DNA from: a virus
Direction: 5' to 3' (one strand)
IMG/VR virus record: IMGVR_UViG_3300007735_000800
Span: 62,278 to 126,277 of that record
Length of the DNA: 64,000 nt
Positions 42,035 through 45,923 of this stretch are shown piece after piece. The position numbers and the translations under genes are program-made. Each line of letters opens with the position of its first letter. Position 1 is the stretch's first letter. The notes beneath the pieces are model-generated. The model made no database searches. It was not told the origin of the DNA and saw only the letters and a program-made list of their open reading frames with translations.

Positions 42035-42436
42035 ATGCAAAACTTATTTGAAAATTGTTTGACATCTAAAAAACAAGGTTCGCTGGGCGAGGCAAAAGCA
42101 GTTTACGAATATACCAAATTGGGTTTTATAGTTTCAAAACCATTACAAGATTGTGATTATGATCTAATAGTGGAAAAAAATGGCTTATTAAAAAGAATTC
42201 AAGTTAAAACAACCACACAAATTCCCAAAGGCAAATATTTTGTTTGTAATTTAAGAGTTCTTGGTGGAAACCAATCGTTCAATACAGCAAAAAATAGAAA
42301 TCCAGAAGCGTATGATGAATTATTTGTTTTAGCAAATAATGGAGATTGTTGGAGCATTCCAGTAAATAATTTTAATGCATTAAGCACTTTAACTTTAGAT
42401 AAAAGATTTGAACAGTATAGATTGACAACTAAATAA
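42035..42436 (+). CDS. free-standing PD-(D/E)XK endonuclease (homing-type)
   Basis: QGSLGEAKA...P..D.DYDLIVE...RIQVKTT; inserted in the tRNA cluster behind TATAAATA. Confidence 0.8.
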   Translation: MQNLFENCLTSKKQGSLGEAKAVYEYTKLGFIVSKPLQDCDYDLIVEKNGLLKRIQVKTTTQIPKGKYFVCNLRVLGGNQSFNTAKNRNPEAYDELFVLANNGDCWSIPVNNFNALSTLTLDKRFEQYRLTTK

Positions 42437-42541: not shown

Positions 42542-42655
42542 GGTGATCGGCGTGGTGAGAACACGCAGTCTTGAGAAGAGTCTTGCCAGCGTAAAACGGT
42601 CTACGATTAATTGACCGACAAAGCTGGGCAAATGGGTTTAAATCCCATATCACCT
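42542..42655 (+). ncRNA. oversized tRNA-like fold B
   Basis: GGTGAT/ATCACC stacked on ATGGG-TTTAAAT-CCCAT; GCGTG/CACGC and CCAGC/GCTGG arms, the latter enclosing CGGTC/GACCG. Confidence 0.45.
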
Positions 42656-42658
42656 TTT

Positions 42659-43273
42659 ATGCATAACATTAACATTCCACATTTTTATTGTCTTTTAAGA
42701 AAAGAACATCTTTACCAAGATGAAAAATTTAAAGGTGAATATGAAAAGGTAACGGTTTTTTCAGCTCAGTCTAATCCAGACCGAGCGATGCTTTTTTCTG
42801 TGATGTTGGACAATGGAACCATAAGAAGCAGAGTTCCAATCAATAAACTCTGCAGTAGAGAATCTGCAATTCAACCATTGGATCATTTGCAGCTATGGGA
42901 TTGCTTCTCTATGAATTGCACGGTAATTTCATATGATTATTTGAAGGGTTCAAGGGCAAAAGTAATATTCAAAGATAAGACTTATTCATGGGGAAATTAC
43001 ATGATGACATTTGATTGGTATGACAATCCATACAGCGATGCCCCCACCCAATATAAATGTCTTCATATGATTGAATTGGATAATGGAAATTATGCATTGC
43101 AGCCAAACAACAGAATTTATTGGAAACATATGTCTTTTGTCACAAAACCATTTCCAATGAATCCAGATTACAAAGTTGACAACAAAATTTATAGATGCGA
43201 AGACAAGAGCGACAGATGGATTGTCACCGGTGATGATGATCAATATTATTATGATATAGAAGAAGATAAATAA
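42659..43273 (+). CDS. conserved phage hypothetical protein
   Basis: HNINIPHFYCLLRKEHLY...ALQPNNRI pattern; start at MHNINI. Confidence 0.6.
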   Translation: MHNINIPHFYCLLRKEHLYQDEKFKGEYEKVTVFSAQSNPDRAMLFSVMLDNGTIRSRVPINKLCSRESAIQPLDHLQLWDCFSMNCTVISYDYLKGSRAKVIFKDKTYSWGNYMMTFDWYDNPYSDAPTQYKCLHMIELDNGNYALQPNNRIYWKHMSFVTKPFPMNPDYKVDNKIYRCEDKSDRWIVTGDDDQYYYDIEEDK

Positions 43274-43277
43274 AAAT

Positions 43278-43600
43278 GGTATTGTTGATAACGGATTGAA
43301 ATGCGACAACACAGGGGTTCGATTCCCCTCGGCTCCATTAGCCTAACCGAAGGATTCTGCAATTCCTTAGAGATGGCGATCCAAGTCCTCGTAGCAGCGG
43401 GGCAATCCCCGAAGTCCTAGGCTTCGGGAATCAGGGGCTGAAATGGCTTCGACTGGCGCAGAGTAATGAAGAAGGAGATACCCGTTACTGGCAACGAGGA
43501 ACGTGAAACAACAGTTGCAAATTTAATTGCCGAAGAATTGGCAATAGCTGCTTAAAGCAGTGGGGTTTCCCGGTTTTCCCGCATCTGAAAAACCGGGATT
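43278..43600 (+). ncRNA. ssrA: circularly permuted two-piece tmRNA (acceptor piece about 43278-43337, intervening 43338-43433, coding piece from 43434)
   Basis: T-arm AGGGG-TTCGATT-CCCCT plus CGGCTCCA lies upstream of GGGGCTG...TTCGAC; G3:U70 pair; tag GCA 43517 to TAA 43555 = ANLIAEELAIAA. Confidence 0.88.
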
Positions 43601-43606
43601 TTTTAT
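43568..43606 (+). terminator. intrinsic terminator after tmRNA
   Basis: TCCCGGTTTT...AAAACCGGGA followed by a T-run. Confidence 0.7.
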
Positions 43607-45303: not shown

Positions 45304-45374
45304 TTCCTTCGCTAGGATTCGAACCTAGAAAGAGAGATCCAAAGTCTCCCGTGTTACCGTTACACCACGAAGGA
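45304..45374 (-). tRNA. tRNA-Gln(TTG)
   Basis: TCCTTCG/CGAAGGA, GGAGA-CTTTGGA-TCTCT, TTCGAAT. Confidence 0.92.
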
Positions 45375-45923
45375 GGATATCTTGCTGCAATAATTATTCA
45401 TTATTATTCCAGAGGCAGTTCCGACATTGATGCTGCGAACTGATCCATACTGGGGAATATAAAGAACATCATCACACATACTTAGCACGTCCGAAGGAAT
45501 GCCGATTTGCTCCTGTCCGAACACCATTATGTAATGTGTACCGGGATCAAAGTCATAAGCATTTACATCCTTGGACTCGGGAACATTGTCTATTCCGATG
45601 ATTTTGATTCTTTGTCCCCCAGCAACACACTCATTAGTAACATTGACAAAAAAATTGGATAGAGAATCAATATCACGTACATGATGGAAATTAGTGTAGT
45701 GATGCGTTCCAACAGTGCCGCGCCTATCGTATTTTTTCTTTCCATAGATTACGACTTCTTTCGCCAAGAACGCATTAGCGTTGCGAATAATGGTTGCAAT
45801 ATTAAAATCATTGCCAATATTGCAACAGACAACTGAATAATTAAAACGCTTGTCGTCCAAGTCTGCACGAATTGCGTCGTCTCTCCAATACTTGTAGTGG
45901 TCAATCAGGTTCCTCGTGTCCAT
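45360..45923 (-). CDS. SpoU/TrmH-family RNA 2'-O-methyltransferase
   Basis: NIGNDFNIATIIRNANAF, FGQEQIGI, YIPQYGSVRSINVGTASGI SPOUT motifs. Confidence 0.88.
   Translation of the reverse strand: MDTRNLIDHYKYWRDDAIRADLDDKRFNYSVVCCNIGNDFNIATIIRNANAFLAKEVVIYGKKKYDRRGTVGTHHYTNFHHVRDIDSLSNFFVNVTNECVAGGQRIKIIGIDNVPESKDVNAYDFDPGTHYIMVFGQEQIGIPSDVLSMCDDVLYIPQYGSVRSINVGTASGIIMNNYCSKISSFVV

Follow-up and report, generated by a model that had tools for sequence, protein, structure and literature searches.

What kind of RNA does a phage produce from a gene that resembles a transfer-messenger RNA (tmRNA) cut in two and rearranged, where does such a gene come from, and what is the RNA that lies between its two pieces? 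These questions are raised by a locus in the final 64 kb of a 126,277-bp IMG/VR virus record, which is estimated to be about 70% complete and carries T4-like phage genes; no psbA was found in the phage. This stretch of 64,000 nucleotides is called the window in the following, and all coordinates are positions within it. We consider it very likely that the locus, which lies in the tRNA gene region of the phage, encodes a functional two-piece tmRNA (ssrA). As a kind, two-piece tmRNAs of phages are already known (PMC9004378, PMC11915505). Buchholz et al. (2022) described one in the T4-like OM43 phage Melnitz and obtained 53 permuted calls from 18,146 phage genomes, mostly aquatic ones (PMC9004378), and the tmRNA database of 2025 contains 97,179 sequences, of which 11,946 are permuted and 79 come from phages (PMC11915505). 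Given these numbers, the original prediction, made from the sequence of the locus, overstated its case in calling a permuted phage version unusual. What is new here is a family that lies outside the alphaproteobacterial, betaproteobacterial and cyanobacterial models, has no counterpart in deposited phages, and carries a conserved spacer RNA that occurs only inside this gene.

Detection of the gene and its relatives

ARAGORN called a permuted tmRNA on the plus strand in the region 43267-43606 of the window. The Rfam model of permuted tmRNAs (tmRNA_permuted, RF04321) aligned over its whole length (model positions 1-213) to 43278-43555; the score was 75.7 bits, the cut-off being 47, with an E value of about 1e-12. 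The nine relatives on which the model was tested reached 72.6-87.1 bits, all above the cut-off, and between 43200 and 43700 no Rfam family other than tmRNA_permuted, and no riboswitch, matched at E ≤ 10. The circular permutation initially read from the sequence is thus borne out by two independent detectors and by the family-wide covariation described below. The gene order is also as predicted, with the T-arm, the acceptor 3' strand and the discriminator base lying 96 nt upstream of the GGGGCUG of the acceptor 5' strand, and with no encoded CCA (Table 1).

Relatives were collected in two scans. Searching viral contigs for the 24-mer formed by T-arm and acceptor strand, followed by ARAGORN, yielded 21 further contigs, and a second scan, for the spacer motif, picked up members whose acceptor stems differ, giving 45 viral contigs in total. 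With 36 further copies of the gene from a scan of metagenomes, the family comprises about 80 contigs. The 15 relatives checked for synteny share the order tRNA-Gly/Thr/Tyr, tmRNA and then tRNA-Gln/Glu/Pro on the opposite strand; from this common gene order we conclude that the phages are related and that the tmRNA is an established component of their tRNA region.

In relatives the distance between tRNA-Tyr and tmRNA ranges from under 0.1 kb up to about 2.3 kb, which suggests inserted mobile genes; in the window an ORF of the PD-(D/E)XK endonuclease family lies in between (42035-42436, plus strand; PF11645, E 1.5e-13). The ORF directly upstream of the tmRNA (42611-43273, plus strand) is a member of phrog_3704, a family whose representatives in deposited phages carry ferredoxin or PurM-like annotations. 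It is most similar to a homolog in Flavobacterium phage immuto (56% identity), which has no tmRNA beside this gene, whereas the gp43-type DNA polymerase of the phage is closest to those of cyanomyoviruses (at most 43% identity). On the other side, an ORF for a SpoU/TrmH-family RNA 2'-O-methyltransferase (45360-45923, minus strand; PF00588, E 1.3e-22) adjoins tRNA-Gln. Between 48000 and 64000 the G+C content rises from about 0.38 to 0.50-0.60; this part encodes a CobS-like ATPase (phrog_249), a peptidase (phrog_459) and four tRNA genes and is not obviously a chimeric join, since phage-type genes and tRNA genes are still present.

Table 1. Features of the two-piece tmRNA locus, with positions in the window
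Feature	Position	Strand	Basis or remarks
T4-type late-promoter-like motif GATAAATA	43265..43272	+	7/8 of TATAAATA; putative function
Acceptor piece	43278..43337	+	60 nt before CCA addition; RF04321 alignment and pair counts
P2 outer strand GGUAU	43278-82	+	within acceptor piece
P2a strand	43302-09	+	within acceptor piece
T-arm	43313-43329	+	within acceptor piece
Acceptor 3' strand CGGCUCC	43330-43336	+	pairs with 43434-40
Discriminator A	43337	+	no CCA encoded after it
Intervening segment (spacer)	43338..43433	+	96 nt, structured
Spacer closing stem GCC/GGC	43341-43/43375-77	+	conserved fold
Spacer hairpin 1, loop CUGCAA	43350-54/43364-68	+	covaries
Spacer hairpin 2, loop UAGCAG	43387-91/43398-402	+	conserved fold
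Spacer hairpin 3	43408-14/43422-28	+	compensatory changes at 5/7 pairs
Coding piece	43434..43606	+	about 171 nt; RF04321 alignment and pair counts
Acceptor 5' strand GGGGCUG	43434-40	+	7 pairs including G3:U70
P2a partner	43453-60	+	within coding piece
P2 outer partner AUACC	43478-82	+	within coding piece
PK1, tag, P5 hairpin, 3' pseudoknot, U-run (in this order after the P2 partners)	43483-43604	+
PK1	43483-43518	+	stem 1 43483-86/43500-03; stem 2 43491-95/43514-18
Tag frame GCC...UAA (AEELAIAA)	43529..43555	+	ARAGORN call, frame test
3' pseudoknot and U-run	43560..43604	+	stem 1 GUGGG/CCCGC 43560-64/43578-82; U-run 43599-43604
3' pseudoknot stem 2 CCCGGUUUU/AAAACCGGG	43569-77/43589-97	+	covariation

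Structure, tag frame and 3' end

The structure model is well conserved in the family. In an alignment of 22 sequences, 96.8% of the cells are paired and 16 pairs have changed on both sides, and a second set of 22 sequences gave 97.9% and 15 such pairs; none of 500 shuffles reached the observed level, and slid controls stayed at 36-52%, with 38-50% for the first of the two sets. A brute-force all-against-all covariation scan was swamped by phylogenetic noise and was left out of the results. Over the 45 contigs the acceptor stem occurs in five variants, each fully or nearly fully paired, and the T-stem in four, all of them paired, with covariation at two of the five pairs of the T-arm. The G3:U70 pair, which had been recognized in the 7-pair acceptor stem of the window gene, is indeed present there and, like the discriminator A (A73), invariant across all 45 contigs, and CCA is never encoded.

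Three contacts between the two pieces had been proposed, of which one stands. The pairing TGGCGCA/TGCGACA corresponds to helix P2a (UGCGACA/UGGCGCA), where compensatory changes are found at five of six pairs. The short pairing TAAT/ATTG is broken in about half of the relatives. The third, CCGUUA-UGGCAA/UUGUUG-UAACGG, can be drawn in the window sequence, but is only 85% paired in the relatives against 77% in one slid control, and it excludes both the outer P2 helix and stem 1 of a pseudoknot, PK1, each of which is 100% paired with covariation; it was therefore rejected. In the outer P2 helix (GGUAU/AUACC) the covariation extends to four of five pairs. PK1, for which the original prediction had seen no clear candidate, lies upstream of the resume codon. 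Its stem 1 takes the forms CGUU/AACG, CGAC/GUCG and CGGG/CUCG and covaries at two of four pairs, with three pair types each, while stem 2 (GCAAC/GUUGC) is also 100% paired and changes solely from G-C to G-U.

A further pseudoknot is predicted at the 3' end. Here, CCCGCAUCUGAA forms the nearly invariant 12-nt loop of a terminator-like hairpin, and the CCCGC within this loop is complementary to an invariant GUGGG just past the stop-codon hairpin, giving an H-type pseudoknot (43560-43597) in a region that had been thought to leave no room for pk2-pk4. Stem 2 is found in covarying forms (CCCGG/CCGGG, GCUGG/CCAGC, GGUC/GACC and GAUUC/GAAUC), whereas stem 1 has no variation or one-sided variation only; for this stem, as for stem 2 of PK1, the proposed pairing rests on conservation and complementarity rather than on covariation. 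The fold energy at 43560-43604 is -20.1 kcal/mol. The terminator that had been noted directly after the tag hairpin exists as a 9-bp hairpin plus U-run (43569-43604), but the same hairpin is also stem 2 of the conserved pseudoknot. In five relatives (L216, L150, L161, L205 and L155) the pseudoknot stem is short (GGUC/GACC), and a terminator of its own, CCCC...GGGG with a U-run, comes after it; in the subgroup of the window, pseudoknot stem 2 and terminator appear to be merged in one hairpin that has the form of an intrinsic terminator. With both PK1 and the 3' pseudoknot present, the RNA is not pseudoknot-stripped, and the description of a minimal RNA of that kind is not supported, also because its tag has 8 residues and not 12.

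The tag frame was decided by comparison within the family. In 43 relatives the tag always has eight codons, in 11 variants that follow the pattern A-[N/A/E]-x-[L/M]-[A/R]-[M/I/V]-A-A, with turnover among four synonymous Leu codons, alternating Ala and Pro codons, and both TAA and TGA stops. The 12-residue tag proposed earlier would begin at a GCA (43517) that lies inside stem 2 of PK1 and is out of frame or replaced by GTA in 10 of 22 relatives. As the only frame conserved in the family is that of eight codons, the tag of the window gene is read as AEELAIAA from GCC 43529. The resume codon follows the end of PK1 by 10 nt and is preceded by UAAUU; in the family this distance is constant at 10-11 nt and the preceding bases are U(A/G)A(U/A)(U/A), a spacing and an upstream U-A that we take to resemble the resume-codon determinants of the E. 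coli tmRNA. The stop codon UAA (43553-43555) is situated in the loop of a CUGC/GCAG hairpin (P5), as had been anticipated.

Such conservation would be needless for an RNA that acted purely as a decoy. A role mainly as decoy or inhibitor of host trans-translation, by titrating SmpB or AlaRS, has been reported for the RNA of mycobacteriophage DS6A, which consists of the tRNA-like domain only (PMC4131195, PMC11915505). Moreover, SmpB was not found in the record of the window or in those of five relatives (phage records 3-76% complete by CheckV), so that the SmpB of the host is what the phage RNA would have to compete for. However, the tag frame with its synonymous turnover, the stop codon in the P5 loop, PK1 and the distance from PK1 to the resume codon are all conserved in the family, and we regard a main role as decoy as very improbable. 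We take the phage two-piece tmRNA to be genuine and probably functional.

Transcription, processing and host factors

T4-type late promoters have a box like TATAAATA some 6 nt ahead of the transcript start. The motif GATAAATA ends 5 nt before the first base of P2 and shares bases with the stop codon of the preceding ORF; the TAAATA from which transcription had been suggested to start is present within it (ATAAATA, 43266-43272). In 13 of 22 relatives (N)TAAATA is found 5-7 nt from the start of P2, in three different upstream contexts, and in six of the other aligned relatives a TAAATA box stands ahead of a tRNA-like gene that abuts the tmRNA. For the full motif TATAAATA, 2.1 occurrences are expected in the window and eight are present; six are on the plus strand, and five of the six lie no more than 15 nt ahead of a listed ORF start. 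We take the T4-type late motif to be the probable promoter of the tmRNA. At 43221-43249 a sigma70-like match could allow transcription earlier than the late motif implies, but matches of this type occur at chance frequency in the window.

In the unannotated tRNA-like gene between TAAATA box and tmRNA (L066:6412-6515, L035:5365-5470 and L059:10780-10885), the acceptor stem is 7 bp long (GCGUAGU/ACUACGC), the variable region is extended and the T-loop (UGCAAGU) departs from the canonical form; the gene was called neither by ARAGORN nor by the Rfam tRNA model.

All 11 tRNA genes of the phage (window 21068-59797) lack an encoded CCA, and in nearly all of them the discriminator is followed by U or UU, as in the tmRNA (A followed by UUAGCC). 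This arrangement implies that the phage relies on RNase Z-type cleavage and on the CCA-adding enzyme of its host. No CCA-adding enzyme was found in the incomplete phage DNA examined, and its absence together with that of SmpB is consistent with dependence on host factors. Taken together, the missing CCA, the U(U) after the discriminator and the failure to find either protein make a combination of RNase P, an RNase Z-type cut, host CCA addition and host SmpB the simplest pathway.

Along this pathway, one precursor would be made, with the late-type TAAATA motif as its most likely promoter; it would begin at about 43278 and end at the hairpin and U-run near 43604. RNase P of the host would cut 5' of G43434 and an RNase Z-type enzyme behind the discriminator A43337, as with the phage tRNAs, which also lack CCA; the acceptor piece would then receive its CCA from the host enzyme. 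The products would be an acceptor piece of roughly 63 nt and a coding piece of roughly 171 nt, joined by the acceptor stem and the P2 helices, and the structured 96-nt spacer would be released. The complex would be charged with alanine via G3:U70, with host SmpB as partner, and would rescue stalled ribosomes during infection by adding the tag AEELAIAA. The sequences themselves show the anatomy of the gene, the constraint on structure and coding across the family, and the lack of smpB and of a CCA-adding enzyme in the phage records examined. We infer when and where transcription starts, which enzymes process the precursor, that the RNA is charged and tags proteins, and whatever the spacer RNA may do, and we assume compatibility with SmpB, AlaRS and proteases of the host.

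The spacer RNA and the ancestry of the family

The mean pairwise identity of the spacer core is 0.89, compared with 0.91 for the T-arm, 0.88 for PK1 and 0.41-0.46 for the flanks. All 65 copies of the spacer element (29 viral and 36 from metagenomes) directly follow the discriminator of a tmRNA, even where the acceptor stem is a different one. Hairpins 1 and 2 have complementary loops (CUGCAA/UUGCAG), which may form a loop-loop contact (43357-62 with 43392-97), for which one compensatory double change is seen (CUGUAA/UUACAG in L059). The z-score of the spacer fold is only -1.8. Judged by conservation and covariation, the 96-nt spacer is a conserved structured RNA and not a neutral linker; it could be a released small RNA, an aid in processing or folding, or a selfish insert.

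A resemblance of the spacer to twister motifs was considered. With the spacer (43325-43445) as query, no Rfam family except tmRNA_permuted matched at E ≤ 10, and this included the covariance models of twister, hatchet, pistol, HDV-like and hammerhead ribozymes, leaving the idea of a twister-like ribozyme without Rfam support at this threshold.

The spacer is also variable in kind within the family. Six members have a spacer of 6-12 nt, others carry the element in a length of 71-99 nt, and several lack hairpin 3. In L102 and L054 the spacer is 122-123 nt long and holds a different, tRNA-like insert, including a GAAGGUGCAAAUCCUUC arm. Since the same position can be occupied by a few nucleotides, by the element or by a tRNA-like insert, the spacer appears to act as a slot with alternative contents.

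These variants also bear on the question of which RNA is the main product of the locus. The spacer RNA could itself be the principal target of selection, with the tmRNA scaffold serving as a vehicle for its release by RNase P and RNase Z, or, in a variant of this idea, it could be a cis-acting and possibly self-cleaving aid. The core is conserved to the same degree as T-arm and PK1, the stems covary, one compensatory change affects the loop-loop contact, and the element always abuts the discriminator base. However, the six members with 6-12 nt spacers and the two with tRNA-like cargo keep all tmRNA features, which indicates that the tmRNA is selected on its own; neither the modest fold z-score nor the lack of a ribozyme or other Rfam match speaks for this explanation, which we consider very unlikely.

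The lineage-specific models of Rfam do not place this tmRNA in any of the bacterial two-piece lineages. It scored 11.7 bits in a local match to the alphaproteobacterial model (alpha_tmRNA, RF01849; cut-off 50), 35.9 bits to the cyanobacterial one (cyano_tmRNA, RF01851; cut-off 70), covering model positions 60-117 only, and 51.0 bits to the betaproteobacterial one (beta_tmRNA, RF01850; cut-off 84). A beta-lineage ancestry, considered because the last match is full-length, was dropped: in a sample of 151 Pseudomonadota genomes, 36 scored 40-72 bits with this model, all below its cut-off, an alpha-type gene at 42 bits among them, and the 51 bits of the window gene lie within the range of such cross-hits, which alphaproteobacterial tmRNAs also give. 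In blastn searches against 50,697 deposited phage genomes no similarity beyond the T-arm was found. One-piece tmRNAs that share the identical 24-nt stretch of T-arm and acceptor strand, and alpha-type genes, are similar to the window gene over 27-28 nt only, which is not informative on origin. In the one-piece and two-piece groups compared, nothing outside the tRNA-like domain ties the gene to any of them.

The exact acceptor and T-arm sequences in permuted order with a spacer of 1-31 nt were not found in 185,579 bacterial species genomes, and the 3' pseudoknot motif had a single hit there, a chance match. This hit, in a Rhodobacteraceae MAG, falls within the ORF of an IS transposase; the MAG has a tmRNA of its own, which is of the ordinary alpha type, and was discarded as a source. 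Capture of ssrA from hosts or prophages has been discussed as an origin of such phage genes (Buchholz et al., 2022, PMC9004378), and on this ground the gene might be a non-functional passenger, namely a host gene fragment or a decaying pseudogene picked up by the phage. This is already contradicted by the covariation data, with compensatory conservation across about 80 contigs; the G3:U70 pair and the tag frame are intact, the synteny in the tRNA region is fixed, and no matching copy occurs in any of the bacterial genomes scanned. We hold a passenger to be extremely improbable.

A comparison with known systems helps to delimit the family. The aquatic T4-like myophages Melnitz (a Methylophilales phage), Pelagibacter phage Mosig and their relatives likewise have a permuted ssrA; no smpB has been reported from them, the use of host factors is presumed, and within a phage group the gene is common without being universal (PMC9004378). 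The Melnitz gene, however, is placed with the alphaproteobacterial lineage, has a stated early promoter and is accompanied on its 3' side by a glutamine riboswitch (PMC9004378), whereas the window gene hardly matches the alpha model, is preceded by a late-type motif, has no riboswitch match and contains a structured spacer. The alpha (Caulobacter type), beta and cyanobacterial two-piece tmRNAs (Keiler et al., 2000; Sharkady and Williams, 2004; cited in PMC9004378 and PMC11915505) share with it the gene order, the break between pseudoknot region and P2, a reduced number of pseudoknots and the alanine identity. In contrast to these lineages, the window gene has a tag of eight residues and a long, conserved and structured spacer, and it lacks the CCA that is encoded in the permuted consensus and in the alpha example examined. 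The one-piece tmRNAs of mycobacteriophage cluster C (Bxz1, Catera) and Bacillus phage G also lie beside tRNA genes and use host SmpB (PMC4131195), but neither they nor the DS6A RNA are permuted, and just 27-43 nt of T-arm and acceptor strand align with the window gene.

It is tempting to speculate that the roughly 80 contigs represent a fourth, phage-borne lineage of two-piece tmRNAs that arose by its own permutation and not by capture from alpha-, beta- or cyanobacterial hosts, and that the spacer is a dedicated structured RNA, a third product freed by tRNA-processing enzymes or by self-cleavage. This combined proposal is tentative, and we rate it as rather unlikely. The conserved spacer RNA and the ancestry of the family are, in our opinion, the most interesting part of what is left to explain.

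Phage tmRNAs bear on how large lytic phages sustain host translation or redirect proteolysis late in infection. With about 80 natural variants of a compact tmRNA that has an 8-residue tag and two pseudoknots, one of them merged with the terminator, the family offers a handy minimal model of trans-translation. If it is a true independent permutation, the rearrangement of tmRNA would be easily reached in evolution. If the spacer RNA is functional or catalytic, three RNAs would be derived from one precursor, and its confinement to the tmRNA gene adds to the hints that phages may use the spacer cut out of their two-piece tmRNAs as an expression slot for extra cargo.
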